A stretch of 64,000 nucleotides of DNA from Bythopirellula sp. (lineage in GTDB: Bacteria; Planctomycetota; Planctomycetia; Pirellulales; Lacipirellulaceae). The stretch lies in NCBI GenBank assembly GCA_965216565.1, contig OZ244170.1, positions 992,001 through 1,056,000 of the forward strand, read 5' to 3'. The notes under the pieces are model-generated. The model was given only the letters and a program-made list of their open reading frames with translations. It did no database searches and was not told where the DNA came from. The stretch's first letter is position 1. Every line of letters begins with the position of its first letter. Shown here piece by piece: positions 47,072-64,000 of the stretch. The position numbers and the translations under genes were made by a program.

Positions 47072-47220
47072 AGCAAGAAGCAAGCCAAGAATCGCGATGT
47101 CGAGCATAGCCGCGATCCTACGGATCGCCGGTTTAATTTAACCTGTCGGCGTAGGCAATGTGAAAACAGGTGTTTTCGGAGGCAAGTTTCATTGAAACAG
47201 TCGATTTTGCCAAGACTGTG

Positions 47221-48435
47221 TCAATCGTCAAGGTTATCACGTTTCTCAGGCTCGGCTGGCCCGGCATCTTCTTTTTCCTTGTCACTCTCAGTTTCGCCAA
47301 TAGAACATCCACTGGCTCCGCCAAGAAAATCTATGTTGCGCATACAGCGTTTCGCATCTTCATCGTGTAGATGATAGTAGTGGCGAATCATCTCACTTTT
47401 TGAGTGCCCTAGCCATTTCATCACCATACGTTCTGGAACGGCCTTCATTAGCACAGGTCGAACAAAATAGTGCCTGAAGCTATGGAATCTGGCATCCGCA
47501 AAGGTTTTGAGTCCCTGTACTTTTGGGAATTGTGGTGCCAGAGGAGCGATCACATCGCTGACGAAGATTCCTCGAGCAGTCTTGTCATGAAGTTTTCCAC
47601 CCCTAGGACCTCGAAACACCGGACCTTTTTCCGTCCCCATATGTCGGAGCACTTGTAGAAGGTCTGGGTGGATAGGGAAAGATCGACTGCGGCCATTCTT
47701 GGTTTGCCGATTTTGGACCGAATCTGTTTCGATCTGCCCAGATTGATAGGTGAGCATCAGTTGTTCATCATCAAGGTCGAGATCTGACCAGGTGATTGTT
47801 GCCAACTCTGATATCCGCAATCCGGTGCAGGCTAGGGCTACGATAATATTTGCCAGCCAGCCGAGCTGTTCTTGTGCCTGGCAGAATACAACCATGGCTC
47901 GAATCTGGCACGATGTGTAGCAATAAGCCGACTGGCTTTCGACCTTACGCAGCTTTAAATGGACGGGCTCAACGCCCGACAAGTGATTCGCCTCCAAGAG
48001 CCACTTTTGCACACCAGCAATGGTGATGACGTCCTGTCGGATAGTGCTTCCGGCATTTTCCCCTTCAAAATGTTTTACGTAGTCCGTGAGAAACTTGTCG
48101 TTGACTCCATTCCAGGTTTCGACACCTCGCTGCTTGGCGAACGGCGAGAGCTTGTTCAAAACGGAACGATATCGCCGCTACGATGTTTTCTTAAGCCCCC
48201 CTGCTAACTGAGGCCGGGCAACGTGCTCACTAAATAACCTACCACCTTCCTCTAAGGTAACCAAGACAAGCTTCTCGGACTTATGAAGACTCTTGGCCAC
48301 GAGTCCTAGATCTTCGGCACAAACTCGATCAAGGTCTGGCAATTGCCTAAGGGCTTCGTCCCGGTCTCTTGTTCCGAGGGAATGGCGTCCGGCGCTAAGA
48401 GGGTTACTCCTACCGTCGTCGTACCAAACGCCCTT
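47221..48435 (-). pseudogene. Tyrosine recombinase/integrase pseudogene
   Basis: TGLRISEL, HSFRHY, WLGH and YYH motifs; in-frame TAG at 48178-48180 (KKTS*RRYRSVLNK); 5' end replaced by an IS3 remnant. Confidence 0.85.
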
Positions 48436-48612
48436 AGTTGGAGACTCGACTATAACCATCGCCGACCCCACAGTTCGTTGGATTACCAGACCCCGGCAGC
48501 ATTCGCAGCCCGCTGTTGTTCTGGAGTGAGGCCGTAGGCCGAACGGAAGAACAACAGCGGAAACCACCGCAACGCGCTCACTTAGGCTGGTACGAAACTT
48601 GGGAGGTTGTCA
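48436..48612 (+). mobile_element. IS3-family transposase 3' remnant with probable right end
   Basis: WRLDYNHRRPHSSLDYQTPAAFA (IS3 integrase-core C-terminus), then ...CTGGTACGAAACTTGGGAGGTTGTCA ending in CA. Confidence 0.8.
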
Positions 48613-49691: not shown

Positions 49692-50519
49692 TTATTGAGC
49701 TAGAAAAAGAGGTCTATCTGCGTGCTGCACGGTATGCAGCATTGTTTCCCCAAATATTCTTCGCAAGATTAGGTTCCTATTACTGTTTCCCATCACTATT
49801 AGGTCAGCGTTCCAGTCGTTGGCATACGGCAGCAAGCTTCGCTTTGCAGATGAAGGTTCGTAGTCGGAATCAACACTGAAGCCGTGGGACCGGAGATAAT
49901 TCACTGCATCGCCGAGGAGTGATCTGGCAGTCGCCTGGGAGTGCTCGAAGGTTACCACTCGCAAATTCGCATCTGGCCAGAGCCGTAACTGAGCAAAACG
50001 CTTCATCGCTTTTGCAGATTCCATCGATCCGCTGTAGGCAATTAGTACATTGTTAATTCTCCTATGCTTCGGCGAGACAGTTATCAATGGACGCACACCT
50101 GCCTGGACTAGCCGAATTAGTTCGGCTGGGGGTTCATCGACGACACCATGTTCAAACAGATGCCCAAGTCCGCAAACAATAAGATCATGATAACGAGCTG
50201 CATCAGACATGCATTGGTAAGGATCACCTTCTGGGTTATTGATCGAGTGTTCGATCGCTGCCCGGGTAGCGGAATTACCAAATTCCTTAGTGACTTCTAC
50301 GATAATCTTCTTGGCTTTAGCAATTCGGTGGGCCCTCAGGTCAGCAGCTGCCGAGCCACCACCTACCGGCACAGGTCCCGTGGCACCAATCCTTTCTCGA
50401 TCGAGTATGCATAGACCTGTTAGCGATGAACGCTGCGCTCGAGCAATGTCAATCGCCATTAGGGTGGCGGCTGAGGCGTATGTTTGATCACCAAGACCTA
50501 CAAGTATGCGACGAATCAT
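49692..50519 (-). CDS. Universal stress protein (tandem domain)
   Basis: RRILVGL, VLIAYSGSMESAKA and DLIVMG...IFGETM...RPLFL motifs. Confidence 0.88.
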   Translation of the reverse strand: MIRRILVGLGDQTYASAATLMAIDIARAQRSSLTGLCILDRERIGATGPVPVGGGSAAADLRAHRIAKAKKIIVEVTKEFGNSATRAAIEHSINNPEGDPYQCMSDAARYHDLIVCGLGHLFEHGVVDEPPAELIRLVQAGVRPLITVSPKHRRINNVLIAYSGSMESAKAMKRFAQLRLWPDANLRVVTFEHSQATARSLLGDAVNYLRSHGFSVDSDYEPSSAKRSLLPYANDWNADLIVMGNSNRNLILRRIFGETMLHTVQHADRPLFLAQ

Positions 50520-50985
50520 TCTTGTTCTCCTTTCGATCTTGCCAGCATGTTCCGCGATATTCTTTGAGCACGAGGACCGGACAATGGGCTAGACGAACAA
50601 CTTTCTCGGTAACCGAGCCTAACAGAAGACGCCTCATACCTGTCCGCCCATGGGAGGGGATTACGATGGCATCAGCCCCGATTTGTTTGGCAAATTCAGC
50701 GATTTCATTTCCTGGGTCTCCAAATTCCACATGGAATGATACTTCCCGAAACCTATCGGACCCCAGAGACTTCTGGTAGTACGCTTCTACATTCTTCCGT
50801 CTTTCATCTATTGGCTTCGCATCCCACATGGCAGCTGGAGAAGTGACTGCTAAATCCTGGTCAATGTGGACGACATGAACATCATGTGGTGTAGATGCCA
50901 ACTTGAGGGCCGTCTTAATCGCACCCGCCGAGGCCTTGCCAAAGTCGATCGGTACGAGCAGTTTCTTATCGGTAAACCAACTCAT
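50488..50985 (-). CDS. Universal stress protein
   Basis: LLVPIDF, GDP and IVIPSHGRTGMRRLLLGSVTEKVVRLAHCPVLV motifs. Confidence 0.93.
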   Translation of the reverse strand: MSWFTDKKLLVPIDFGKASAGAIKTALKLASTPHDVHVVHIDQDLAVTSPAAMWDAKPIDERRKNVEAYYQKSLGSDRFREVSFHVEFGDPGNEIAEFAKQIGADAIVIPSHGRTGMRRLLLGSVTEKVVRLAHCPVLVLKEYRGTCWQDRKENKNDSSHTCRSW

Positions 50986-51503
50986 TGTGGCGCACCTTTC
51001 AAAATAGAAGTGTGATGATCTGCGTCAACAATCGTCTGCAAAATATCCAGAGCGCTTACCACGCCTATTGGGCATGCACGTTCGTCCACAACGATTAGGC
51101 GATGAATGTTTTCTCCGCTGATGTATCTTGCAGCGTCGATCACTGATTGTTCGACCCCGATGGTTTGGACTGCAGAGCTCATGTGCCTTTCGACCCGGTC
51201 CTCTGGGACTACTTCAATCTGAAGCGATCCATAGGCACCTTCATGTGAGACTTCAACTTCATTGGCAACTGACGAATAGCCATCTCCCTGCGAGTTCCGA
51301 TAGCATCTCCTTATGATATCTGAGTTGCTCACGACACCCACGCATTTCCCCATCTCATCGATCACCGGGAGTCCGCTGATGTCGTGCTCTACCAGTAGTT
51401 TTTCGGCCTCTACGATCGTCGCATTCTTGGAAACCGACCAGATCTGCAGTGACATGATGTCTTTTACCTTGTACTCATGTAGTTTCTCGAAAGTGTCGTT
51501 CAT
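50982..51503 (-). CDS. CBS domain pair protein
   Basis: VKDIMS, ISGLPVID...GVVSNSDI, VERHMS and IHRLIVVD..GVVSALDI motifs; ATGA-coupled. Confidence 0.9.
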   Translation of the reverse strand: MNDTFEKLHEYKVKDIMSLQIWSVSKNATIVEAEKLLVEHDISGLPVIDEMGKCVGVVSNSDIIRRCYRNSQGDGYSSVANEVEVSHEGAYGSLQIEVVPEDRVERHMSSAVQTIGVEQSVIDAARYISGENIHRLIVVDERACPIGVVSALDILQTIVDADHHTSILKGAPQ

Positions 51504-51982
51504 CTTTCGGCCACACTTTCTGGTTGAGTACCTTCTGCCAGCAAGGGACTGGAGTTGGCCCGAACAGTAAGCACTGGGCAAGATGCTGTCCTGACAATCT
51601 CTTCGGCAACGCTTCCCAATAGAAGTTTACTAATGCCAGAGACTCCATGAGTGCCAATCACAATCAAATCAGCGTGTTTCCTCTGAGAAAACTTGACGAT
51701 TTCGTCCGCCGCTTCACCTCTAAGAAAGTGGTGCTCGAAGTTAACTCTTGCAGACTGAGGCTTGACTCTCTCCAGCTTTTCCAGTTGCTCCTGGGCAATT
51801 CGATCTATCTGTGGGAGGTAGCCATACCCCACATCTCCTAACACCAGCCCCGGAGTCTCATCATCCACATGCACGATCAGCAATCGGGCCTTCTCCACAG
51901 CAGCAAATGCCGTCGCGTATTGCAGAGCGGCTACACTGCACTGTGAGAAGTCTGTGGCATAGATGATCGTATCGATATTCAT
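51500..51982 (-). CDS. Universal stress protein
   Basis: IIYATDFS and DLIVIGTHGVSGISKLLLGSVAEEIVRTASCPVLTV motifs. Confidence 0.93.
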   Translation of the reverse strand: MNIDTIIYATDFSQCSVAALQYATAFAAVEKARLLIVHVDDETPGLVLGDVGYGYLPQIDRIAQEQLEKLERVKPQSARVNFEHHFLRGEAADEIVKFSQRKHADLIVIGTHGVSGISKLLLGSVAEEIVRTASCPVLTVRANSSPLLAEGTQPESVAER

Positions 51983-52012
51983 TGATCCGATTGGCTAGAG
52001 ATACCGTTCCTG

Positions 52013-52534
52013 CTAATGTTGACTGAACCTCGACATGGCTGGACTGATGGGGGTTTGATTCGACTTTTTCGATGTTTCTTTGCTGTCTCCATGCTTTATC
52101 GGCGACTTAACTGTGAGGACGGGGCATGAAGCCTTCCGCAAGACGCCTTCGGCGATACTACCCATCAGCATTCGCGATAGCCCTGTGCGACCATGAGTTC
52201 CCATAACGATTAAATCAACTTTTTCTCGTTCTGCAAACTCGACGATTTGAGATACAGCCGCTCCGGTTAGGTAGTGCCTTTGCACTCGAACACCCTCTCG
52301 TGTTGGTTTTATGTTTTCAAGCTGCTTTCGCATCACTTGCTCGAGTGAATCTGGAACATCTTCTGCGTAAGCAAAGCTACCATAGCCCCCAAGATAGGAC
52401 TGTGTGTCTTCGGCAGCATGTACGATAAATAAAGTTGCACCTGTTTCGGCCGCAAGAGCTGATGCATAGCCCAGAGCCGCGTTACTCGAGTGTGAAAAAT
52501 CTGTTGGGCATAGAATTGATTTAATTCTCATCAT
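52013..52534 (-). CDS. Universal stress protein
   Basis: ILCPTDFS and DLIVMGTHGRTGLSRMLMGSIAEGVLRKASCPVLTV motifs. Confidence 0.94.
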   Translation of the reverse strand: MMRIKSILCPTDFSHSSNAALGYASALAAETGATLFIVHAAEDTQSYLGGYGSFAYAEDVPDSLEQVMRKQLENIKPTREGVRVQRHYLTGAAVSQIVEFAEREKVDLIVMGTHGRTGLSRMLMGSIAEGVLRKASCPVLTVKSPIKHGDSKETSKKSNQTPISPAMSRFSQH

Positions 52535-52610
52535 AAGCTCCTTTTGATCTCATCAGAAAGCCTCGCTGCCGCGCTTTACCGTTGAACACGAGTGCAGCAA
52601 CTAAAACATC

Positions 52611-52626
52611 CGCAACTCGTGTGCCA
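52611..52626 (-). promoter_or_regulatory. Sigma54 -24/-12 promoter for the USP/CBS operon
   Basis: TGGCACACGAGTTGCG (GG-N10-GC). Confidence 0.8.
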
Positions 52627-52708
52627 TAGTGAAAGACGAACAAGACGAGTCTAGTTGCCGTGAGCATATTCCCTGGCAATAGGAACTGTGCCAGATGGGA
52701 GTGCCCAC

Positions 52709-52724
52709 TGAGCCCTAACGCACA
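52709..52724. promoter_or_regulatory. Candidate enhancer (UAS) palindrome
   Basis: TGAGCCCTAACGCACA, fitting TGTGCG-N4-CGCACA, between divergent sigma54 promoters. Confidence 0.5.
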
Positions 52725-52790
52725 CACCTGGAGAGGTAGTCACCAGCGACATGCTCCGGTTTTCCGAGAAGCTTCACTTGCTGAGTAGCT

Positions 52791-52806
52791 TGGCACGGAT
52801 CGTGCT
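52791..52806 (+). promoter_or_regulatory. Sigma54 -24/-12 promoter
   Basis: TGGCACGGATCGTGCT (GG-N10-GC). Confidence 0.7.
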
Positions 52807-52861
52807 GCCATGTGCGGCAGGTGTTTGTACAGCAAGTTTCAAACCGGAAAGGAGAATCGAC

Positions 52862-53077
52862 ATGGCTACCGTAGATTCTGGGCAACATTGCCGCATCGTC
52901 GGTAAATCGCCGGGCAAGTCGGCAGAGAATGGGCCTATCAGACAACGAAACTTCTTGATTGATGAGGACCTGCACGCCGGTTACCTAATTCCGGCGATTC
53001 TAACTGGAATCATACTGTTTGGATTGCTGTCGATGGTATTTAGCGTTTTGGCAATTCTGTTAACGGGGTCTCAGTAG
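52862..53077 (+). CDS. Small membrane protein (71 aa)
   Basis: AAAGGAG RBS, ATG at 52862, C-terminal hydrophobic helix. Confidence 0.65.
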   Translation: MATVDSGQHCRIVGKSPGKSAENGPIRQRNFLIDEDLHAGYLIPAILTGIILFGLLSMVFSVLAILLTGSQ

Positions 53078-53182
53078 GTCTACGTTGCGAAGCAACCTGC
53101 CAAAGGCATCACCTTCAGTTCACGTACATCACGCTTAGCGCTATGATCGCAGTCTCGGAAAACCTATCTAGCGCAGGCGAAT

Positions 53183-53614
53183 CTACTTTACCAGCAAGAT
53201 AGGGCATTGGCTCATGATAGAAACTTGGTAGCTAAGAGTGGCCCAGCCGTGAGGTTGTTCATCAAGATTTACCCTATGAGAGCTAAGCACGATAAGATCA
53301 AACTCTTTTTGCAATGCGTAACTAACGATAGCATGGGCCCGCTTGCCCATCACAATCTTCTCATCAACGCGAACACCCGCCTGTTCAAAACCTTCCGCCC
53401 GACTGGCCAGGTTGGTACGTGCTTGCTGTTTCAATTTGTCGTAGAAAAGCAGTATCTCCGTATCATCGTCAGCGTACTCAATGGCCTCAATCACATGCAA
53501 TAGTGTTACACAGGAATGATTCTGCTTAGCGACTTTCAGGGCACATCTCAAAGCAGCCTGATTCTTTGCAGTAAAATCAAGAGGCAATAGAATCTTTTGG
53601 AACATGAGATTCAT
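53183..53614 (-). CDS. Universal stress protein
   Basis: FQKILLPLDF, DLIVLSSH and CPILLVK motifs; start at 53605 or 53614. Confidence 0.9.
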   Translation of the reverse strand: MNLMFQKILLPLDFTAKNQAALRCALKVAKQNHSCVTLLHVIEAIEYADDDTEILLFYDKLKQQARTNLASRAEGFEQAGVRVDEKIVMGKRAHAIVSYALQKEFDLIVLSSHRVNLDEQPHGWATLSYQVSIMSQCPILLVK

Positions 53615-53664
53615 CCTCGCATGTTTCGCGGTTCTTTAATGTCAGCCACCTCAATCTTAAATGC

Positions 53665-53680
53665 GGCAAACAATGTGCCG
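53665..53680 (-). promoter_or_regulatory. Sigma54 -24/-12 promoter
   Basis: CGGCACATTGTTTGCC (GG-N10-GC). Confidence 0.7.
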
Positions 53681-53730
53681 ATTGTCTTGGCCTTCTGCAT
53701 TCGGCTCCCAGTCCTGGCTAGCTCTATGAG

Positions 53731-53746
53731 TGTGCGAGTTCGCTCA
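53731..53746. promoter_or_regulatory. Candidate enhancer (UAS) palindrome
   Basis: TGTGCGAGTTCGCTCA, followed by a TGTGCG half-site at 53750. Confidence 0.55.
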
Positions 53747-53840
53747 GTCTGTGCGGACAACGTGAAGGCTAGACAAACAATGTTGTGAATTCACGTAGCA
53801 AAGTGCGCGGAACAAATGCTGGTATTCTCTGCGAAGGCAT

Positions 53841-53856
53841 TGGCATGCATCTTGCA
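53841..53856 (+). promoter_or_regulatory. Sigma54 -24/-12 promoter
   Basis: TGGCATGCATCTTGCA. Confidence 0.8.
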
Positions 53857-53935
53857 AGAAGCTTCTGAAGTGGCGGGCGGAGCGTTGATCAGGGCAGCCA
53901 CCGTTTCTTTTCTATCTAAGTGAGGAGTGTACGAC

Positions 53936-54625
53936 ATGACAACTTACGCGAATTCTCGTGGCGCGGCACTAGAGCGTGCCTATCAACACTGGCGAGAACG
54001 AGGGGCCCTATTGAAGCTGCCAGTTCACAAGGACACTAGACCTCCGTTGACAATAGCCATCAGTAGAGAGCTAGGCGCTGGCGGCAGTGCGATAGCCCAT
54101 GCAATTGCTGAGAAAAAGGGTTGGCCTCTTTACGACCGTGAATTGGTAGAACAGATTTCAGAGGATACGGGCATTCGATCCCAGCTATTGGAAAAACTCG
54201 ATGAGAAGAGCCCTAGCTGGTTGGCGGAGTGTCTCGAAGGGTTCTCCGATGAACGAAATATTAGCGGTGCTGGATACGCAATCCGACTCCGTGATATTCT
54301 GCTAGCCCTATACTATCACGGCAACTGCGTAATTCTTGGTCGCGGCGCAGCTCAGCTGCTTCCGCCAGAGAAAACCCTTCGCATCCGTTTGGTAGCTCCA
54401 AAGAGCTTGAGAATCGAACGGATGTCCAAGATTCTTGGCTCCCAGGATGATGCAGTTCGAATCGTGACAGAATCGGACCGAGATCGCGAGTCGTTTGTAA
54501 GAAGATACTTTTTCAAGGATCCTGCATCTCTGGAGAGCTACGACTTGACGCTAGACACCTCGAGATTCTCACGAAATGGCTGCGTGAATACCTTATTGAG
54601 TGCTATTGAGGGGCACAAAGCCTGA
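53936..54625 (+). CDS. Cytidylate kinase-like family protein (Cytidylate_kin2 type)
   Basis: TIAISRELGAGG, YDREL, CVILGRGA, IRLVAP and YDLTLDTS motifs; GAGGAG RBS. Confidence 0.85.
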   Translation: MTTYANSRGAALERAYQHWRERGALLKLPVHKDTRPPLTIAISRELGAGGSAIAHAIAEKKGWPLYDRELVEQISEDTGIRSQLLEKLDEKSPSWLAECLEGFSDERNISGAGYAIRLRDILLALYYHGNCVILGRGAAQLLPPEKTLRIRLVAPKSLRIERMSKILGSQDDAVRIVTESDRDRESFVRRYFFKDPASLESYDLTLDTSRFSRNGCVNTLLSAIEGHKA

Positions 54626-54797
54626 TATGTGAAATAGTCGAACAAGAGAATTGTGATTCTTCCCTGCCTTGCATGAAGCGAATGTTCGTCCAAGAATGGA
54701 AGTTGCGTTGCAGCTGCTTTCTATGTAACGAATAGTTGCTGCTCGTAGAAATTCGGCATGCGATGGAAATTTAGTGCGCAAGCGCTCTGGAGGAATC

Positions 54798-56624
54798 ATG
54801 GAAAGCCCCAAGTGGGAACGTACTGAATCTCTGGAGCGAGAGTTTGGACGCATTCTTGAGGATTCGTTAAACGAGATCTTTATCTTCGATGCCGATTCGC
54901 TCAAGTTTATTCTTGTAAACCGAGGAGCCAGAGAGAATCTCGGCTTCACGATCGAGGAACTTCAGAACCTCACACCGGTTGACATCAAGCCGGAGTTCTC
55001 GCGAGTGGCATTCGAAGAGTTGATATCGCCGCTCCGCGAAGGTCGCGAAGAGTCAATATGTTTCAACACTGTGCACAGCCGTAAAAGTGGCTCTCAATAC
55101 AATGTAGAGGTGCATTTGCAGCTTGCCACATTTCACGACACCCCTGTATTCATAGCGATTATTCTCGATACGACAGATCGCTTGCGAGCTGAAGGTGAGC
55201 TACGAGTTCGCAATCGTGCCATCGAATCGGTTGGAGTGGGAATCGTTATTACCGATGCAACTCTGTCTGAGATGCCTATTGTCTATTGCAATTTGGCATT
55301 TGAGCAGATTACTGGTTATTCCAAACATGAGATCGTCGGACATAATTGCCGATTTCTACAGCAAGACGACCGTAACCAAGAGGCGCGTCATGCCATTCGA
55401 GAAGCTGTGATAGAAGGCCGCGGTTGCCAAACCTTGATTCGCAACTATCGTAAAAATGGCGAAATGTTTTGGAACAACCTCAGGATTTCACCTGTGAGAA
55501 ATCCTGATGGAGCCGTGACGCACTTCGTAGGTCTCACTGATGATGTAACGCATCGAATTCTGGCGGAAGATGATAAAAAGGATCGGGAAGCTCGACTTGC
55601 GGCGATACTAGACACGGCAGTCGAGGCGATCATCACTATTGACGATAAAGGCATTTGCGAGTCGATCAACACAGCTGGAGAACGGATGTTCGGCTACTCC
55701 GCGGCCGAGATTATTGGCAACAACGTGTCGATGCTTATGCCGTCGCCTTATCGTGAAGAGCATGGGCGATATCTTTCCGACTACTTAGAGACTGGTGAGA
55801 AGAAAATCATTGGCGTAGGTCGGGAAGTTGTCGGAAAGCGAAAAGATGGTAGTGAATTTCCAATTCACCTCTCGGTGAGTGAAGTTCATCTCAAGGAACG
55901 CAGGATCTTTACTGGTATTATTCAGGACATTAGCCAGCGCAAAGCGGCCCAGGTGCGATTGGTTCAGGCGGAAAGGCTTGCGGTGCTGGGCGAGGCGATG
56001 GCGCGTTTGGCGCATGAAGGTCGAAATTCATTACAACGAATCCAGATTGCCGTGGAAACGGCACGAATGTGTGAGCCCTCCTCGGAGATTTTAGCAGCTC
56101 AATTCGACTCGATTGAGAAAGCTAGTGATGGCTTAGATTCATTACTGGAGGAACTCCGCAATTATGCTGCGCCACTGACCCTTGAGAAAACAGAATGTCC
56201 GATCCCAAACGTGTGGCGTTCCGCCTGGCAATCTATCGACTCGCTGCGAGAGGGACGCGACGCTATGCTGGTTGAAGATATTCCAGACGAACAAATACTG
56301 CTTCCTGTCGATAAGTTTCGCTTAGGGCAATTGTTTCGAAACATCTTTGAGAACGCTCTGGCCGCATGCTCTGACCCAGTGGTAATCGTGATTTCAGCTT
56401 CTCATAGCCGCGATCAATGGATGATAAACATCAGAGACAATGGTCCAGGCCTGACAACTGAACAGAGCGAGCGCGTTTTTGAACCTTTTTTCACAACCAA
56501 AACCAAGGGAACTGGTCTCGGCATGGCCATAGCCCGCCGCATCGTGGAAGCCCATGGCGGCTCCATTGCCGTGGCGCGCTCTACGCAACAGGGTGCCGAA
56601 TTTGAAATCGCCCTGCCTCTCTAG
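54798..56624 (+). CDS. Cytoplasmic sensor histidine kinase: PAS, LOV, FixL-like PAS, HisKA, HATPase
   Basis: GHNCRFLQ LOV motif; MLMPSPYREEHGRYL...IIGVGREVVGKRKDG FixL-like PAS; LAHEGRN H-box; N, DNGPG, FEPFFTTK and GTGLG boxes. Confidence 0.92.
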   Translation: MESPKWERTESLEREFGRILEDSLNEIFIFDADSLKFILVNRGARENLGFTIEELQNLTPVDIKPEFSRVAFEELISPLREGREESICFNTVHSRKSGSQYNVEVHLQLATFHDTPVFIAIILDTTDRLRAEGELRVRNRAIESVGVGIVITDATLSEMPIVYCNLAFEQITGYSKHEIVGHNCRFLQQDDRNQEARHAIREAVIEGRGCQTLIRNYRKNGEMFWNNLRISPVRNPDGAVTHFVGLTDDVTHRILAEDDKKDREARLAAILDTAVEAIITIDDKGICESINTAGERMFGYSAAEIIGNNVSMLMPSPYREEHGRYLSDYLETGEKKIIGVGREVVGKRKDGSEFPIHLSVSEVHLKERRIFTGIIQDISQRKAAQVRLVQAERLAVLGEAMARLAHEGRNSLQRIQIAVETARMCEPSSEILAAQFDSIEKASDGLDSLLEELRNYAAPLTLEKTECPIPNVWRSAWQSIDSLREGRDAMLVEDIPDEQILLPVDKFRLGQLFRNIFENALAACSDPVVIVISASHSRDQWMINIRDNGPGLTTEQSERVFEPFFTTKTKGTGLGMAIARRIVEAHGGSIAVARSTQQGAEFEIALPL

Positions 56625-56811
56625 CGTAGATTTAACACACTTCCTGTAAGTGCATCACCAGCTGACAAGTGTGCTGATACGCGCGCTCTATTAGTCATGG
56701 CTGCACACAAGCCGAGGGCAGTCTAGCTGCTTTAGCTACGTTGCGGTCTATCTATTTAATAAAAACCCTCGATTGAATCGCATTGCACTGTGGCCCCATC
56801 GTTCCTGGAAC

Positions 56812-56827
56812 TGGCATGAGTATTGCA
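56812..56827 (+). promoter_or_regulatory. Sigma54 -24/-12 promoter
   Basis: TGGCATGAGTATTGCA. Confidence 0.8.
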
Positions 56828-56911
56828 GTTCAGAAGTTGCAGAGGAAAAGTGCGCTTCAATAGTCTGCGTACTCTGTCCGATCGTTTAGTCCAGATATAC
56901 GAGTCGAGTAG

Positions 56912-57184
56912 ATGGCTATTCAACCAATCAATCAACGTGCTGCAAGAACAAGAGAACCAGGCAAAAAATACGTTATACAGAATGATATAGACTGCCCCGT
57001 TGCCGATGCCCTTCGCAGGAATGCCCGTGGCGGAATGTGGTGTGTGCAGTGCGAGTTTAGGGAGGGGCTGGCAATACTATACGGCAAGGTTGCCAGCTAC
57101 TACCTGAAGCAAATCGCGCAGGAGACGGCAAAAAGCGTTGAAGGCGTCGAACTGGTTATCAATAGGGTAAACGTGTCGGTGTGA
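56912..57184 (+). CDS. BON domain protein
   Basis: LYGKVASYYLKQIAQETAKSVEGVELVINRVNV motif. Confidence 0.8.
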   Translation: MAIQPINQRAARTREPGKKYVIQNDIDCPVADALRRNARGGMWCVQCEFREGLAILYGKVASYYLKQIAQETAKSVEGVELVINRVNVSV

Positions 57185-57297
57185 CGATGTACGTAGGCCC
57201 TGTCGCCAATCTATGCAATATTCGAGCCAGTATGTTTCCAAGGAAGGATTGGTCAATGAGTTAATGAATTGGAAACTACATTGTCAGGGGGAAATAG

Positions 57298-57750
57298 ATG
57301 CCAAAGCACCTCTCAATTCTTATTGTTGAATACGATAACAGAGCAAGAGATGGACTGACGAAAAAGTTCTTGTCTCTGGGAAACCTAGTAGTGGCAGTTT
57401 GCCATCCAAGACTAGCCCTGGAGGCCGCGACGATACACGACTTCGACGCGGCCGTCATTGATCAGTCCCTTCCAGAAATGCAGGGGATAGCGCTGATACC
57501 AAGGCTAAGAGGTTTGGTCGGAGACTTAAAAGTCGTGCTCCTCTCGGGGGATCCCGATGACTTGACCTCCGAAGAAGCTGTCGTGCAAGGAGCCGATGCG
57601 TTTCTGCACAAACCTTGTTTTGTAGATGATGTCGAATCGAGCGTGAGAAAAGTACTGGCAAAGAGGAATCCAGTGGATAGACCACGCTTGCCACAGTTCA
57701 ACGTCCGATTGCTTGCACCGAATGGTCTCACTGATGTAAGAGCAAACTAG
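57298..57750 (+). CDS. Single-domain response regulator (receiver)
   Basis: ILIVE, VIDQSLPEMQG, VLLSG and FLHKP motifs. Confidence 0.85.
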   Translation: MPKHLSILIVEYDNRARDGLTKKFLSLGNLVVAVCHPRLALEAATIHDFDAAVIDQSLPEMQGIALIPRLRGLVGDLKVVLLSGDPDDLTSEEAVVQGADAFLHKPCFVDDVESSVRKVLAKRNPVDRPRLPQFNVRLLAPNGLTDVRAN

Positions 57751-57794
57751 AAAAGACAATTGTTTTCCCGATTCCAAAGACCAATTTCGGCCGT

Positions 57795-57810
57795 TGGTAC
57801 ATGAGTTGCT
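57795..57810 (+). promoter_or_regulatory. Sigma54 -24/-12 promoter
   Basis: TGGTACATGAGTTGCT upstream of hsp20. Confidence 0.7.
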
Positions 57811-57922
57811 ATTCTAGGAATAGAGGGAAGTGACAAATACTCGTGAACTTGCAAGGCCCTGAATCATTGCAGATGCGAATCGCAATGATGAAGTAGCTTA
57901 TGATTTTCGAAAGGAGGATAAG

Positions 57923-58384
57923 ATGTCTGGGACATTAACCACTCACAGTAGGACACCGCACTCTATAAGGAACGAGCCACGGAATAACTTCTTGGACGAA
58001 ATGGAGAATATGGTCGCAAGACTATGGCACAATGGCGAAGATGGCTGGTTTGGTTCGCATAGCATGCCTTTGGTCGATATTGCCGAATCCGATTCTGCTC
58101 TAGAAATGAAGCTCGACTTACCGGGGGTCGCTCCCAAGGAGATTGACATTCAACTCAACGGCAGCGTGTTAACCATCAGTGGTGAGAGAAAAGAAGAAAA
58201 GGAAGGCAAAAGCAAGGCTTACCACCGAATGGAACGGCGAATTGGAAGTTTTTCTCGTACGTTTACACTCCCATGCCCCGTTGAGGAAGACGAAGTGGTA
58301 GCTGCCTATAAGAGTGGTGTTTTAACAATTACGCTGCCCAAGACCGAGGAGGCGAAGACGCGTAAGATTACAATCAAGTCGTAA
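57923..58384 (+). CDS. Hsp20/alpha-crystallin small heat shock protein
   Basis: DLPGV, LTISGER, ERRIGSFSRTFTLP and AAYKSGVLTITLPK motifs; AAGGAGG RBS. Confidence 0.94.
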   Translation: MSGTLTTHSRTPHSIRNEPRNNFLDEMENMVARLWHNGEDGWFGSHSMPLVDIAESDSALEMKLDLPGVAPKEIDIQLNGSVLTISGERKEEKEGKSKAYHRMERRIGSFSRTFTLPCPVEEDEVVAAYKSGVLTITLPKTEEAKTRKITIKS

Positions 58385-58435
58385 CAATGCCTATCGAAAA
58401 CTCAGATTTACCGCACAGGGTGACAACGGAATGTT

Positions 58436-58470
58436 AGTCCCGGAGGGGTTTACCCTCCGGGACTTTTCTT
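58436..58470 (+). terminator. Rho-independent terminator
   Basis: AGTCCCGGAGGG-loop-CCCTCCGGGACT followed by a T-rich tail. Confidence 0.85.
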
Positions 58471-58700
58471 TGTAGTGGAATTTGTGTTACTCCCACGCAG
58501 AATGCCATCTTCTTTCTTTTCAGCTTTGTTCTCGTGGCAGAGGGAGCGGCGTAGCCCAGTGATTCTTGGTTCGAGTATAAGCACACCAGGTATTCACGAT
58601 CTTGAACTGAGCTGCTTTTAACTTAAAGTAGTCTGTAAATCCGAATCGACACCGCCGACGAGCAAGACGGCCAGCGTTCCTGAATCACACGTCGTTACCT

Positions 58701-60134
58701 ATGTCTGAAATTGCAACTCGTACCACTGCTCGTCGGCTGTTGGGAACGCTAACCCCCTCTGGCAGGCGGTCGCTCATTCTGGTTTTGGCATGCCTGTTGC
58801 TGGCATTTGCGGTTGCCTACGTACCCGAATATGAAGGTCTCTCCAAACAGGGAATCACTGCGTTATTCATACTCGTGCTATGCGCGGGACTCTGGATGAC
58901 CGAGGCCATGCCTGCCTTTGCAGTTAGCCTATTGGCGATTGGCTTGGGAATCGCGCTATTGGGCAACGCCAACGGCACAGAACCAGATTGGGAAAAGTAC
59001 GTAGCCACCTGGGGTAGTCCACTCATTTGGTTGTTCTTCGGCGGGTTCATTTTAGCCGCAGCAGCCCAAAAGACAGGCCTGGACCATTGGATGGCCTCCC
59101 AAGTTCTCCAACGGCTTGGTACCCGGCCTGCGGTTGTCCTGCTCGGCATTATGGCAGCAACTGCTGTGCTCTCTATGTTTCTTTCCAATACGGCTACTGC
59201 CGCTTTGATGGTTGCGGTCCTTGGTCCGATTCTTGCTTCTAAACGTGATGACGAATGGACGGCCCGAGGCATGTTGTTAGGGGTCGCAGTCGCGGCCAAC
59301 CTCGGAGGCATGGGCACAATCATCGGAACGCCTCCCAATGCGATTGCAGTGGGGACCCTGTCCGGCGTTGCAGAAATCAATTTCATCCGATGGATGATCT
59401 ATGGGGTTCCCCCAGCCATTCTGCTTCTAGCCATTCTTTGGTGCGTTTTGGTCGCACGCTACCTGGGCCGAGAGGCATTTAAGTCATCAGATCGAATTGA
59501 AATCACGATCACAAAAGAAGAGCATTCATCGAGAATTCAGTTGGGCCTAGTTGTTGTTACCTTCTTTGGTACTGTGATCATGTGGATGGCCAGCCCACTG
59601 CATGGCATCCCAACCCCGGTTGTATCATTCATCCCGATTTGTATTTTAACTGCAACCGGCGTCCTAGATGCACATGATGTGCGTGGAATCTCGTGGGATG
59701 TATTACTGCTAATTGCCGGGGGTTTGTCTCTGGGGATCGCAATCGCTGATAGTGGATTGGCAGAGTGGTTCGTTTCTCAGTTCCCATTCGATAGCTTCGG
59801 CCCAGAGATGATTGCATTGGTTGTTGGCTATGTGGCAATCCTTCTTTCGAACCTAATGAGCAATACGGCCGCGGCAAACATTATCTTGCCAATCATGGTG
59901 GCACTTTTGAGTCGTGAGAACGCCCATCTAGTTATACCAATCGCGCTCTCGGCATCGGCAGCAATGTGTCTGCCAATTTCTACTCCACCCAATGCGATAG
60001 TTTATGGAACGGAGAAGATCCGCTCTTCCGATTTGCTTGTCACAGGCCTATTTACTGGCGTGCTTACACCCCCTGTGGTAGTCGGGTGGACGATGATTGT
60101 CGAAGCTACTGGCCTATTCGCTACAAGTAGCTAA
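58701..60134 (+). CDS. DASS/SLC13 family anion transporter
   Basis: SMFLSNTAT, GTIIGTPPN, SNLMSNTAA and LPISTPPNAI motifs; many TM helices. Confidence 0.92.
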   Translation: MSEIATRTTARRLLGTLTPSGRRSLILVLACLLLAFAVAYVPEYEGLSKQGITALFILVLCAGLWMTEAMPAFAVSLLAIGLGIALLGNANGTEPDWEKYVATWGSPLIWLFFGGFILAAAAQKTGLDHWMASQVLQRLGTRPAVVLLGIMAATAVLSMFLSNTATAALMVAVLGPILASKRDDEWTARGMLLGVAVAANLGGMGTIIGTPPNAIAVGTLSGVAEINFIRWMIYGVPPAILLLAILWCVLVARYLGREAFKSSDRIEITITKEEHSSRIQLGLVVVTFFGTVIMWMASPLHGIPTPVVSFIPICILTATGVLDAHDVRGISWDVLLLIAGGLSLGIAIADSGLAEWFVSQFPFDSFGPEMIALVVGYVAILLSNLMSNTAAANIILPIMVALLSRENAHLVIPIALSASAAMCLPISTPPNAIVYGTEKIRSSDLLVTGLFTGVLTPPVVVGWTMIVEATGLFATSS

Positions 60135-60898
60135 TGCACGATTCCCGCCAGCGCCAATCCAGCAGCATAGGCAAGTGCTGCGGCACCACCACCGACTAGT
60201 AGTGTTTCGGTGCCGGCCCGATACCAAGACTCGTCCACAAACCAAGACTTTCCTGCTCCGACTAAGAAGAAAGCCGCAGCAGTCAGAAATGTACTCACCA
60301 CATACGGGCTAGCTATGGAGACTGGCGAGACCATATCGAGGATGAAAGCCAGTAGTGGAATGAGGCCCACAAGTACGAAAGCGACAAGAGTAGTAAGAGC
60401 AGCGCGAATAGCGGAAGGCCCCCGCAACGATAGGCCAAGTTCCTCAACCAACATCGTGTCGACCCAGCGTTTACGGTCCGAAGTAATAACGTCTACTACG
60501 TGTTCTAAAGGTTCGCCATCGAAACCTTTTTGGGCAAAGATTTGGCGAATCTCTTCTCTCTCGCCTTCCGGGAATTCGGCAATGTGCAGTTCCTCGGTTC
60601 TGCGGGCCCGTTCTCGCAACTCTTCCTCGGTCTTTGTTCCGAGGTAGTTACTTGCGGCCATGCTAAAACCATCTCCCAAGAGATTTGCCACGCCGAGGAT
60701 GATAATCACACCTGTGGACAAACCTGCTCCTGCAACTCCAGACACAACCGCAAAGGTGGTGACGGTTCCGTCGATGGCGCCATACACAAAGTCTCGCAAG
60801 TAACTGTGCTTTGTCGGAGCTTCGAGTCGACTACGGATCTGCTCGGGGGTGTGTGATTCTAGAAATTGCCTGCGCTGCGGAGTCGTCGTCGTTTCCAT
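60131..60898 (-). CDS. VIT1/CCC1 family Fe/Mn transporter
   Basis: DFVYGAIDG, GDGFSMAASNYLG, EREEIRQIF and EELG motifs. Confidence 0.92.
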   Translation of the reverse strand: METTTTPQRRQFLESHTPEQIRSRLEAPTKHSYLRDFVYGAIDGTVTTFAVVSGVAGAGLSTGVIIILGVANLLGDGFSMAASNYLGTKTEEELRERARRTEELHIAEFPEGEREEIRQIFAQKGFDGEPLEHVVDVITSDRKRWVDTMLVEELGLSLRGPSAIRAALTTLVAFVLVGLIPLLAFILDMVSPVSIASPYVVSTFLTAAAFFLVGAGKSWFVDESWYRAGTETLLVGGGAAALAYAAGLALAGIVH

Positions 60899-62256
60899 TA
60901 TTGCAATCCGTTGATCTCGCTCTTTGAAATACTGTACTTTTCTAGCAAACGGTATAGACTTCTTCTACTCACTCCCAGCGCCTTGGCTGAGCGCATCTTG
61001 TTACCGTTTTCTTGCTGCATTGCCTGAACTACTCTGGCACGTGTTAATGTTGCTAAGTCAACTTCGGAATCGAGCACCGCATGATTGGGCGATGTGGTAG
61101 AGCCAAGCACTTCAGGTGGCAGATTCTCTTTTCTTAGCACTTCGTCCTCGGCTAACATCTTGGCCCGTTCGATAGCGTTAATGAGCTGCCTCACGTTTCC
61201 AGGCCACGCATACTGGGCAATAGTTTCCCGACAATCGGGTTCATATTCCCAGCCTGCCCCGGCAAAGTGGTCCGCCAACAGAAGGCGATCGTCGCCTCGC
61301 TCTCGCAAGGGAGGTAGCACGATCGTCATAATATTGATTCTGTAGAACAGATCTTCACGGAATCGCTTGGCTTCGACTTCTCTTGCTAGATCGCGATTGC
61401 TCGCAGCAATGATACGCACGTCGACGCGACGTTCCTTGAGAGAGCCAACACGCCGCAGTGAACCATCTTCGAGGACTCTTAGCAGTTTCGGCTGAAGCGT
61501 CGGTGACAGCTCTCCGATTTCGTCAACAAAGAGAGTGCCTCCGTCGGCCACTTCAAAGAGACCAGGCTTGGCAGTAGTGGCTCCGGTGAATGCGCCTTTC
61601 TCGTGCCCAAACAATTCACTTTCTAGTAGCTGTTCTGGCAATGCCGCACAGTTAACAACAACGAGCGGTTTGTCTGCTCGTGTGCTGGACTCATGAATCG
61701 CACGGGCCACCAGCTCTTTACCGGTCCCACTTTCACCCTGAATCAGAATTGGCTTGTTGCTAGGTGCGGAGCGATCGATGAGCCTAAACACTTCTTGCAT
61801 CGCACGTGAATCACCAACCATGTGGTGAGTGGGGGACGTGTGTTTTACGAGTGCCCGCAACTGGCGGTTTTCCTTACGGATTTTTCCCGATTCAGCCGCC
61901 CTCTGCACGACCGCGTCTAGTTGCTTCATGCGAACAGGCTTTGCTAGGAAATCAAACGCCCCAAGTTTCATAGCTTCGACAGCCTTCTCGATCGTGCCCT
62001 CCCCAGTCAGCAAGACAACTTCCATCTCAGGACTAGCGCTTTTGATTTGCTCCAGAAGTTCAATTCCAGACATGCCGGGCATCACCATATCGAGAATCGC
62101 AACCGTAAACTCACGGCTTTGCATTTGTTCAATTGCGGACTCTGCAGAATCTGCATTGTAGACAGAATGCCCAAGCTGCTTGAAGTAATTGACTAGTCCA
62201 TCGCGAAGTTCATCGTCGTCATCGACGATCAATAATTCCAATTGTGAGTCTGGCAT
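60898..62256 (-). CDS. Sigma54-dependent response regulator (NtrC/ZraR type, REC-AAA+-Fis HTH)
   Basis: VDDD/LDMVMPG receiver, GESGTGKE, ESELFGHEKGAFTGA, FREDLFYR, WPGNVRQL and LGVSRRSLYR motifs. Confidence 0.96.
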   Translation of the reverse strand: MPDSQLELLIVDDDDELRDGLVNYFKQLGHSVYNADSAESAIEQMQSREFTVAILDMVMPGMSGIELLEQIKSASPEMEVVLLTGEGTIEKAVEAMKLGAFDFLAKPVRMKQLDAVVQRAAESGKIRKENRQLRALVKHTSPTHHMVGDSRAMQEVFRLIDRSAPSNKPILIQGESGTGKELVARAIHESSTRADKPLVVVNCAALPEQLLESELFGHEKGAFTGATTAKPGLFEVADGGTLFVDEIGELSPTLQPKLLRVLEDGSLRRVGSLKERRVDVRIIAASNRDLAREVEAKRFREDLFYRINIMTIVLPPLRERGDDRLLLADHFAGAGWEYEPDCRETIAQYAWPGNVRQLINAIERAKMLAEDEVLRKENLPPEVLGSTTSPNHAVLDSEVDLATLTRARVVQAMQQENGNKMRSAKALGVSRRSLYRLLEKYSISKSEINGLQ

Positions 62257-62290
62257 GACGTTACCTAGAAAGTATCAGTCTTTGAATAGT

Positions 62291-63286
62291 TCAGCTTTGC
62301 ACAGGTCCGAAGTCTATGTAGGAAGCGATTGTCGATGCATAGTTGGCTCGCTCAAAACTCTTTGGTGAGCCGCATGAATTCCGGCTTAGTTGCCCTCGCA
62401 GCTGAGTTAGGGAGCAGTATTCATTGTAGCTCATCCATTCCAGTAGTTCCGCCCTCACAGTTTCCAAGTATTCCGCGCCATGCTTTAAGAGGGCGGAGGT
62501 CAGCATGACCACATCTGCTCCTACCGAGACGGCTTTAATCGCATCGATTCCGCTATGGATTCCAGACGAAGCGGCAAGCGAGCAGTGAGGAAGCTGGTCT
62601 CGCAAGATACCAATCCAGCGCAGCGGCAAACGATTGTCGCCAGGGCGACTCAATTCGAGATGAGAGTCGATGCTATGCTCTTTCAGGTTTACTTCAGGCT
62701 CAAGAAATCGATTGAACAGGACCAAGCCGTCCGCCCCCGCCTCAACGACTTGCCGTGCAAAGTAGGGCAAAGAAGAAAAATGGGGACCGATTTTCACCGA
62801 AATGGGGATCTGCAGTCGCTTTCGGACAGCCGCAATCACATCAAGATACTGGGCTTCAACTTGTTGTCCTGAGGTCCCAGGATCAATCGGCACGAAGTGA
62901 ATATTAAGTTCCAATGCAGAAGCCCCGGCGTCGGCGATTTGTTGGGCATACTCAGTCCATCCATCAGAGTTCTTTCCATTGATGCTCGCAATGATGGGCA
63001 TGGAGACGGCCTGACGAGCATGTTCAATGAGCTTGGGATAACAGTCGGCACCCCTATTGTAGGGCCTTAGATACGGAAAGCCTGCCAAGTCTTTGGGCGT
63101 AGGCGTCTCAGTACTTTCCCGTAAGATCTGCTCCTCGAAAAGGGAAGGTAAGACGGCCGCCCCTGCTCCCGAAGCTTCCAATCGCCGAAGCACATCCGGT
63201 TGTCCGGTGCAAGGAGATGCAGATGCAATAAGTGGACTCGTGAGGCGTAGACCCAGGTAATCCGCACTTAGATTGACTTTCTTCAT
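62291..63286 (-). CDS. Dihydroorotate dehydrogenase-like flavoprotein
   Basis: YLGLRLTSPLIASASP, VLPSLFEEQI, ALELN, GLVLFNRF and LRWIGIL motifs. Confidence 0.85.
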   Translation of the reverse strand: MKKVNLSADYLGLRLTSPLIASASPCTGQPDVLRRLEASGAGAAVLPSLFEEQILRESTETPTPKDLAGFPYLRPYNRGADCYPKLIEHARQAVSMPIIASINGKNSDGWTEYAQQIADAGASALELNIHFVPIDPGTSGQQVEAQYLDVIAAVRKRLQIPISVKIGPHFSSLPYFARQVVEAGADGLVLFNRFLEPEVNLKEHSIDSHLELSRPGDNRLPLRWIGILRDQLPHCSLAASSGIHSGIDAIKAVSVGADVVMLTSALLKHGAEYLETVRAELLEWMSYNEYCSLTQLRGQLSRNSCGSPKSFERANYASTIASYIDFGPVQS

Positions 63287-63327
63287 CGTGATCTCACGGA
63301 GATTCAGTTTCCACGCCCTTGGTCAAC

Positions 63328-63343
63328 TGCAATTCGAATGCCA
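63328..63343 (-). promoter_or_regulatory. Sigma54 -24/-12 promoter for the DHODH-like / activator / VIT1 operon
   Basis: TGGCATTCGAATTGCA. Confidence 0.8.
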
Positions 63344-63437
63344 AGCACATCAGGCAACGCACTTGACTGTTTTGGTACTGCACGTCCCACAACAACGAGT
63401 CCGGTAAAAATGGTCGCTGTCACGTGCAGACTCACGA

Positions 63438-63453
63438 AGTGCGTTTTCGCACA
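63438..63453. promoter_or_regulatory. Candidate enhancer (UAS) palindrome
   Basis: AGTGCGTTTTCGCACA. Confidence 0.55.
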
Positions 63454-63516
63454 CCCGCACACATCCAGGGAATCTCGACGCCGGGCAGAATCTGTTTCAT
63501 CCGTAGGGTAGGACTT

Positions 63517-63532
63517 TGGCACAACCCTTGCG
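63517..63532 (+). promoter_or_regulatory. Sigma54 -24/-12 promoter
   Basis: TGGCACAACCCTTGCG. Confidence 0.8.
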
Positions 63533-63584
63533 GGTTTTCTCGCGCTGTTAGCCAGATTGCTCGTATTTCGGGAGTAATGATTCC

Positions 63585-64000
63585 ATGTCCAAAACCAATA
63601 GAGACTCTTCGCTTGCAGAACTCATGAAATCCGAGCACGAGGAAATTGCTCGTGAAGTACAAGCGACCCGAGAAGAACTTGAATCAGCCAGCTGCCAGAG
63701 AAACTGTATTAATGACCAGCTGATTCAACTGTCCGAGCTGATCGAGTCCCACTTCAGGCACGAAGAGCAAGGAGGCTACATGGCCGAGGCACTGGTACGG
63801 GCACCTCAACTGCGTCCCCGGGCAGAGGCCCTTCAAAAACAGCATGAGCAGCTTCAAGAAGCAATCGACAAATTGCAACTCTTAGTGAATTCCGGAGTTG
63901 AATCAGCTTCTTGGTGGGACCAAATCCGCAACGATTTTCAACATTTTGCATCACAGTTGACAGAACACGAACACTGCGAAACAAAGCTCGTGCAAGAGGC
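63585..64000 (+). CDS. Hemerythrin (HHE) domain protein (runs off window end)
   Basis: Not in the ORF track; translated by hand: MSKTNRDSSLAELMKSEHEE...SHFRHEEQGGY...QKQHEQL...TEHEHCE (H..HxxxE..H..HxxxE); GGAG RBS. Confidence 0.82.
   Translation, partial: MSKTNRDSSLAELMKSEHEEIAREVQATREELESASCQRNCINDQLIQLSELIESHFRHEEQGGYMAEALVRAPQLRPRAEALQKQHEQLQEAIDKLQLLVNSGVESASWWDQIRNDFQHFASQLTEHEHCETKLVQE

Follow-up and report, generated by a model that had tools for sequence, protein, structure and literature searches.

The gene at positions 54798-56624 (+) of the stretch of DNA analysed here (hereafter the window, 64,000 nucleotides) codes for a soluble sensor histidine kinase of 608 aa, with the order PAS1, LOV lacking the usual Gln, FixL-type heme PAS, HisKA and HATPase. 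Judged by sequence-based tests, this kinase is a real and conserved new combination of known parts, being neither a FixL nor a canonical LOV histidine kinase. On balance, the sequence evidence leans towards a switch that conveys low O2 through its heme to a sigma-54 activator, with blue light on the LOV domain serving as a second brake.

Domain architecture and the heme PAS core

The ATG start codon is closely preceded by GGAGGA, as read in the sequence. The structure model of the kinase (mean pLDDT 81.6, pTM 0.36) displays three PAS domains with continuous helices between them. In a 19-residue hydropathy scan of the 608 residues, the peak value of 1.51 falls inside the ATPase domain and therefore no TM helix is present, which agrees with an earlier sequence-only reading of this DNA, whose coordinates for the features of the gene also proved correct on recheck. 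In this respect, the kinase resembles the soluble FixL of Bradyrhizobium japonicum (BjFixL). PAS1 (54855-55178, +) is of a type that recurs in the retrieved protein P0088, there beside a LOV with Gln and in a permuted order; a structure search for a ligand clue returned an uncharacterised protein as its best match (E 6e-4) and nothing informative. With regard to the C-terminal HisKA and HATPase_c domains (55980-56621, +), His406 (at 56013, motif HExRN), Asn519, Asp547-x-Gly-x-Gly, FEPF and GxGLG, thus including the N, G1, F and G2 boxes, are invariant in the family rows, while the Pfam score lies over the cut-off for HATPase_c and under it for HisKA (22.9 vs 26.9 bits). A motif scan of the genome revealed that this gene carries its sole Cys-bearing LOV and its sole FixL-type heme PAS.

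The third PAS (55611-55934, +) aligns without gaps to the heme domains of BjFixL and of the Sinorhizobium meliloti protein SmFixL (E about 1e-32). His322 (55761) and Arg342 (55821) correspond to FixL His200 and Arg220, the former being the proximal ligand and the latter the residue that binds O2, according to the consulted part of the FixL work (PMC10765370). The earlier proposal of a FixL-type heme PAS, with the His near 55761 and an FG-loop Arg, is consequently upheld by this alignment. The distal pocket is hydrophobic as well, with Ile337, Ile338 and Leu358 at the positions of FixL Ile215, Ile216 and Leu236, and with Val360 included. His322 and Arg342 are found in 27 of 27 aligned rows, and the heme motif in all 22 genomes carrying the kinase. 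A departure from FixL that the earlier reading did not mention concerns the propionate-contacting Arg206, which is replaced by Asp328 here and is an Arg in only one of the 27 family rows; FixL His214 is also replaced. Since removal of Arg206 is reported to weaken the O2 inhibition of FixL (PMC10765370), and the residue is not conserved in the family, this feature counts against the favoured reading.

From its sequence, the kinase very probably senses a gas through heme. It is improbable that the chief signal of the domain is NO, CO, sulfide or the redox state of the heme rather than O2. Such a role would suit the replacement of Arg206 and His214 and the hemerythrin, rhodanese, TauE and MBL-rhodanese genes of the surrounding island, but the distal Arg that binds O2 and the hydrophobic character of the pocket match FixL, and the USP, CBS and Hsp20 gene sets fit hypoxia regulons of the DosR and FixK kind.

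The family alignment comprises 27 rows including the query, drawn from 120 listed homologues and chosen for an identity of 53% or more across 89% or more of the LOV-heme region; some rows are fragments and some are near duplicates. The named rows are from Pirellulales, Lacipirellulaceae, Adhaeretor, Bythopirellula and Aeoliella, which makes a planctomycete belonging to these taxa the most likely source of the window. When a match at E <= 1e-80 is taken as the mark of a carrier, the kinase is present in 22 of 120 genomes of the same taxonomic family, of which 11 have the LOV domain, eight have only the heme PAS and the kinase region, and three have another PAS in front. As the heme motif occurs in 22/22 and the LOV is missing in 11/22, the sequences describe a sensor of O2 type whose flavin module is optional: the core is the heme-PAS kinase, and the two sensors are unequal. 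In a tree of this core, built from 36 rows and rooted only at the midpoint, rows without LOV occupy at least four separate supported places. Their scattering among LOV-bearing rows suggests that the LOV was lost repeatedly, four or more times, the alternative being regain by recombination. Broken genes were rejected as an explanation of the LOV-less forms, for the loci of all eight LOV-less genomes gave weak PAS matches with tblastn and no match of LOV quality. Because the otherwise similar island is found in the 11 genomes without LOV, light is not needed for the system. In G011 (L028 6571-9303), the LOV-less kinase adjoins a cytochrome b/multiheme-like pair, recognised by eye, under a sigma-54 site and the island palindrome TGTGCG-N4-CGCACA.

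Photolyase is encoded in 11/11 LOV-bearing, 5/8 LOV-less and 3/3 other-PAS genomes, which as kin are not independent, and two of the three absences concern genomes less than 80% complete; the association of photolyase with LOV is thus weak. The genome of the window encodes two photolyase-family proteins. An 880-aa frame at G000:C1 1356642-1359284 (-) fuses a photolyase-family domain to a FAD-dependent oxidoreductase-like C-terminal half.

The LOV domain and its missing glutamine

The LOV domain (55233-55550, +) matches 155 solved sequences (best E 1.6e-36) and harbours the motif GHNCRFLQ, encoded at 55338-55361, with the codon of Cys184 at 55347. The residues N183, R185, Q188, R201, N216 and N226 are invariant in 23/23 rows; they are the counterparts of YtvA N61, R63, Q66, R79, N94 and N104, which we take to be the flavin contacts. 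Cys184 itself is kept in 26 of the 27 family rows. In the final strand, HFVGLTDDVT, Thr247 (codon ACT at 55536) stands where canonical LOV domains have Gln, opposite Gln123 of YF1/YtvA in the alignment with 4gcz, and faces Gln513 of AsLOV2, the head row of Supplementary Data 3 in Dietler 2022 (PMC9098866). The full LOV signature with its adduct-forming Cys and the Thr in place of the active-site Gln, both pointed out by the sequence-only reading, are therefore recovered, and alignments with YtvA/AsLOV2 and BjFixL put the LOV Cys and the heme His at ligand positions. An artefact at the Thr247 codon is ruled out, given that P0007, P0009 and G016 have Thr as well, and that relatives show seven further residues other than Gln. 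Over the 27 rows, the column reads T3 A3 I6 V7 C3 S1 L2 M1 Q1, the lone Gln belonging to P0119, a protein with an extra PAS. By sequence, the domain falls in the LOV-deltaQ subclass, whose receptors keep the Cys and have the Gln replaced (PMC9098866), here by a tolerated residue.

In a tree of 57 LOV segments, which rests on a short alignment and is weak in its deeper branches, all 25 family rows without Gln fall into a single clade (ultrafast bootstrap 100) amid Gln-bearing LOVs. A single loss of Gln in the family, followed by drift at the site, is therefore the most likely history. Outside the family, 78 of 89 LOV motifs have the Gln, eight are unscorable and three carry another residue. The unrelated P0355, a multi-PAS protein of 1416 aa, has a FixL-type heme motif as well as a LOV that bears the Cys and carries Thr in place of the Gln.

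According to the available text of Dietler 2022, most substitutions of the YF1 Gln retain signalling, whereas P, H, W, Y and R abolish the light response; in the Q123L variant, recovery is ten-fold slower and the amplitude falls to about half, and a natural Gln-less LOV, the Mesorhizobium LOV-GGDEF protein, responds to blue light (PMC9098866). None of the 26 natural substitutes in the family belongs to the abolishing set (0/26). Since all of them are of the tolerated class (PMC9098866), a slow and sensitive light brake on the O2 switch is predicted; packing alone could also be the cause of the residues allowed at this site. Against a strong light effect, it must be considered that Q123L halves the response of YF1 (PMC9098866) and that the LOV lies one domain away from the kinase. 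Taking the sequence evidence together, an effect of light on kinase output is somewhat more likely than not.

The predicted geometry of the tandem resembles that of FixL. The LOV-to-heme linker aligns without gaps, and with equal spacing, to the one between PAS-A and PAS-B of BjFixL, and the predicted LOV-heme tandem overlays 8js5 with a TM score of 0.79 on the target and 3.6 A. From the heme-PAS Asp to the phospho-His there are 29 residues vs 36 in YF1/FixL, that is one heptad less, so that the sign of the signal would be kept under the heptad rule, as set out in the consulted part of that work (PMC4469895).

The LOV could alternatively bind flavin, and perhaps photocycle, while acting mainly as a dimerisation or spacer module with little effect on the kinase, which would then respond in practice to O2 only. 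We consider this unlikely, even if the domain is missing in 11/22 genomes and at no fewer than four separate places of the core tree, has lost its Gln, is distal to the kinase and accompanies a regulon of hypoxic appearance. A spacer has no use for the Cys, yet rows with as little as 54% overall identity retain it along with every flavin contact. The LOV also equals the catalytic domains in conservation: over the 17 full-length rows, mean identity amounts to 0.63 for PAS1, 0.64 for LOV, 0.70 for the heme PAS, 0.66 for DHp and 0.60 for the ATPase, and 32 of 106 LOV positions are invariant. A vestigial LOV was rejected because of this conservation, which equals that of the other kinase domains in the same 17 rows.

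Another possibility, which we judge to be quite unlikely, is that the LOV, lacking its Gln, senses redox through its flavin and takes hypoxic flavin reduction instead of light as its input, both domains then reporting oxygen or redox state in a NifL-like logic. Flavin reduction can indeed trigger LOV signalling, according to the available part of a review (PMC6798134), the clade that lost its Gln, in a single event, is linked to an island of low-O2 type, and the photolyase link is weak. However, a redox-only flavin PAS does not need the adduct Cys that 26/27 rows retain, Methylococcales relatives read NPR or SPR at the Cys motif, unlike this family, and the natural Gln-less LOV of Dietler 2022 answers blue light (PMC9098866).

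The sigma-54 island and the probable partner of the kinase

The sigma-54 consensus is TGGYAY-N5-TTGC (-24/-12). It has seven matches in the 23 kb around the kinase gene vs 0.38 expected from the 87 sites of the genome, which also encodes rpoN. Six of these matches point at gene starts; the one at 58786, inside the permease ORF and without a palindrome (4 mismatches), is likely due to chance. The comparison of upstream sequence covered 50 regions, taken from the window and from 17 of the 21 loci; L023 and L062-L064 were set aside, as were some sites outside the island. Of these regions, 19 contain the dyad GTGC-N6-GCAC vs 0.27 in shuffles, and the palindrome TGTGCG-N4-CGCACA, with up to two mismatches, lies ahead of 41/50 sites vs 0.7% of 3000 random windows, a count that is descriptive and not an independent test because the motif was derived from those same regions. 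In the window, three copies (52709, 53731 and 63438) precede five of eight sigma-54 sites.

The first of these sites (52611-52626, -), with a palindrome copy upstream (52709-52724, 2 mismatches), precedes a USP/USP/CBS/USP/double-USP run of four USP genes and one CBS-pair gene (49692-52534, -), which are likely targets. A 108-aa ORF between USP genes (52751-53077) has no Pfam match and is conserved in L021 (53%). The copy at 53731-53746 (1 mismatch), a putative activator site, lies between the divergent sites 53680(-) and 53841(+) and is shared by both. The former is a sigma-54-like CGG variant (53665-53680, -) upstream of a USP gene identified by domain match (53183-53614, -), and the latter (53841-53856, +) is upstream of the kinase and of a cytidylate-kinase-like gene (53927-54625, +), the first gene of its likely operon; through this site, the kinase gene is likely autoregulated. 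Behind the kinase gene, a weaker copy (56670-56685, 3 mismatches) stands 142 nt before the site at 56812-56827 (+), a spacing also seen in L021 and L022, and this site is upstream of the BON (56912-57184, +) and receiver genes. A sigma-54-like site (57795-57810, +) precedes Hsp20 (57923-58384, +), which is followed by an SLC13/CitMHS-type permease (58701-60134, +) and a VIT1/CCC1 family transporter (60131-60898, -); these four assignments, BON included, are domain matches. The site at 63328-63343 (-) heads the DHOD-like/activator/VIT1 run, of which the dihydroorotate-dehydrogenase-like protein (NF005741; 62291-63286, -) is the first gene in the likely operon of the activator. A palindrome copy (63438-63453, 1 mismatch) is common to this site and to the one at 63517-63532 (+), upstream of the hemerythrin run. 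The latter begins with a hemerythrin HHE-domain gene (63585-64000, +), cut at the window end (148 aa in L030), and continues past the window (L030 1232-6700) with rhodanese-YgaP, TauE, MBL-rhodanese, PEP carboxykinase and kinase/pyrophosphorylase genes. Such a gene set suggests sulfide handling within the regulon. As the kinase and activator operons both begin at such promoters, positive feedback is implied.

The targets that we infer are thus five USPs, CBS, BON, Hsp20, VIT1, the DHOD-like protein, hemerythrin, rhodanese, TauE, MBL-rhodanese and PEPCK. This set resembles hypoxia or dormancy regulons, and its members have the look of genes for stress from low O2, stationary phase or sulfide; no photoprotection gene was recognised among them. 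The only sigma-54 site of the genome outside the island that is paired with this palindrome lies upstream of a groES-groEL-like pair, recognised by eye (G000:C1 1499580-1501850). The island (window 49692-64000 and L030 1-6700) has a GC content of about 50% vs 55% upstream, is patchy in the genus (8/27 genomes) and adjoins an integrase; it is possibly mobile. Ahead of it lie an ORF of the phage-integrase family (47221-48159), accompanied upstream by a short fragment at 48178-48567, and a gene for an IrrE/ImmA-like peptidase (46337-47071); the stretch 46337-48567 looks like a decayed mobile-element edge. A tRNA search of the window and L030 found none.

With regard to the partner, the NtrC/AtoC-type sigma-54 activator (60898-62256, -) displays a REC-AAA+-HTH order with an intact GAFTGA and is the putative cognate partner. 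Using an orthologue cut of at least 657 bits, chosen after the gap to the next match (598) had been seen, it was found in 23 of 120 genomes, among them 21 of the 22 that have the kinase; the three genomes holding kinase or activator alone are 64-83% complete. The 21 fetched loci contain the activator in 15 cases, USP genes in 16, and an orthologue of the single-domain receiver (57298-57750, +) in two. This co-occurrence, the sigma-54 promoters and the common enhancer-like palindrome support the link, and we hold it to be highly likely that the kinase pairs with the activator. The sequence-only reading is accordingly supported as to the link with the sigma-54 activator and the Cys and His ligand positions; the small receiver, which it had listed for a phosphotransfer test, is a poor candidate. 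As the main partner, this receiver was rejected in view of the 2/21 loci, and it is likely a target or a side branch.

When the kinase dimer was modelled in complex with the receiver domain of the activator, the prediction scored 0.60 vs 0.00 for the best control (partner pLDDT 83), and was graded weak; the runs agreed in at least 94% of contacts. The mark used was reached by 51/78 solved and 2/108 mismatched pairs, and scores up to 0.60 comprise only five of the 78 solved pairs and all four mismatches that passed. This score was given no weight, because the two proteins form a textbook pair and the method is blind between family members.

Proposed mechanism, known systems and significance

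In the mechanism we favour, O2 bound to the His322-ligated heme and hydrogen-bonded by Arg342 would turn the kinase off, by analogy with FixL, and the deoxy form would phosphorylate the activator (60898-62256). The phosphorylated activator would bind TGTGCG-N4-CGCACA and drive the USP, CBS, BON, Hsp20, hemerythrin and VIT1 genes, together with its own gene and that of the kinase in a positive feedback. The signal of the Cys184-flavin adduct would travel along the continuous helix to the heme PAS and the coiled coil, as in the engineered YHF; loss of the Gln would slow dark recovery and make the LOV a dim-light, long-memory input. Kinase output would then peak in the dark at low O2. By analogy, we expect the kinase to operate as FixL does, with a light input of the YHF kind. 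A bolder version, to which we give tentative credit at most, sees in it a natural YHF, an AND gate firing a dormancy/anoxia program only in the dark and at low O2, with the Gln-less LOV as a slow daytime memory and light as a recurrent proxy for O2.

YHF is an engineered chimera of the YtvA LOV, the BjFixL heme PAS-B and a kinase, in which, according to the consulted parts of two sources, blue light and O2 act cooperatively (PMC6798134, PMC4469895), and a 2019 review considers the molecular basis of its signal integration unresolved (PMC6798134). The present kinase shares with it the LOV-heme PAS-HisKA-HATPase order, a PAS-PAS linker of FixL length and the same ligand residues. Unlike YHF, it is natural, possesses an extra N-terminal PAS, has the Gln replaced and a PAS-to-His linker one heptad shorter, and its output is a sigma-54 activator, whereas that of YHF is FixJ. 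The likeness to FixL of B. japonicum and S. meliloti lies in the His200/Arg220 equivalents, the distal pocket and the tandem-PAS geometry (8js5); in contrast to FixL, LOV replaces PAS-A, Arg206 is absent, the H-box is HExRN and FixJ is not the partner. No adjacent FixJ (REC-LuxR HTH) occurs in the window, the neighbours being the single REC and the sigma-54 activator, and the score for the rhizobial FixL model NF041777, 257.8, lies below its 850-bit cut-off. AtoS/AtoC and ZraS/ZraR likewise couple a HisKA kinase to a REC-AAA+-HTH activator with a palindromic upstream site, but the present pair scores under their equivalog cut-offs and has cytoplasmic heme and flavin inputs. AppA of Rhodobacter sphaeroides, which joins BLUF to a SCHIC heme domain, is described in the parts consulted as a natural integrator of light and redox (PMC3760249, PMC4844311), and thus also unites, in one natural protein, a photosensor based on flavin with a redox/O2 sensor based on heme. 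It differs by its unrelated folds, by being an antirepressor and not a kinase, and by controlling photosynthesis genes in a phototroph.

Two relatives had already been listed in Supplementary Data 3 of Dietler 2022, namely WP_145061629.1, identical to P0021 of Adhaeretor mobilis, and WP_145246018.1, whose LOV row matches P0039 of Aeoliella mucimassa; in the available parts of that study, the tested protein is the Mesorhizobium LOV-GGDEF, and the list gives LOV segments only, with neither the heme domain nor the present family mentioned (PMC9098866). Among 232 retrieved proteins, a set picked by similarity that gives no frequency, 34 have both the LOV and the FixL-heme motifs: 26 belong to the kinase family and eight others have Gln-bearing LOVs. 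P0087, P0088 and P0094 are kinases in which the heme PAS comes first and a LOV with Gln comes last, and P0088 carries a PAS1-type domain in between, so that the three PAS types are permuted. P0181 is a hybrid kinase with the LOV directly adjacent to the heme PAS, P0196 is a doubtful case, and P0154 and P0168 are Methylobacter-type sigma-54 activators with both motifs. P0176, grouped with the latter two, is a Methylobacter-type one-component sigma-54 activator with a LOV and a FixL-like heme PAS. A search of representative proteins yielded two among 141 new rows with both motifs, and multi-PAS proteins dominate. A natural LOV/FixL-heme kinase, or such a regulon, was not found in the literature covered, mostly titles and abstracts outside subscription papers.

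The addition of two cofactor-PAS signals in one kinase has so far been shown, as far as the sources consulted extend, only in an engineered chimera. The family described here provides natural soluble kinases with and without LOV, in which eight different residues fill the Gln site, together with an inferred partner and a set of predicted promoters, and two of its members come from named species, Adhaeretor mobilis and Aeoliella mucimassa. Such natural variants make signal integration and the function of a natural Gln-less LOV directly testable. If the proposed mechanism is true, it would define the first light/O2 regulon of planctomycetes, as far as our literature searches reach. Under the bolder version given above, the combination of LOV and FixL-type heme would have been assembled independently several times, as in the permuted kinases and the Methylobacter sigma-54 activators, and light as a proxy for oxygen would be a recurring, unstudied strategy in non-phototrophic bacteria.
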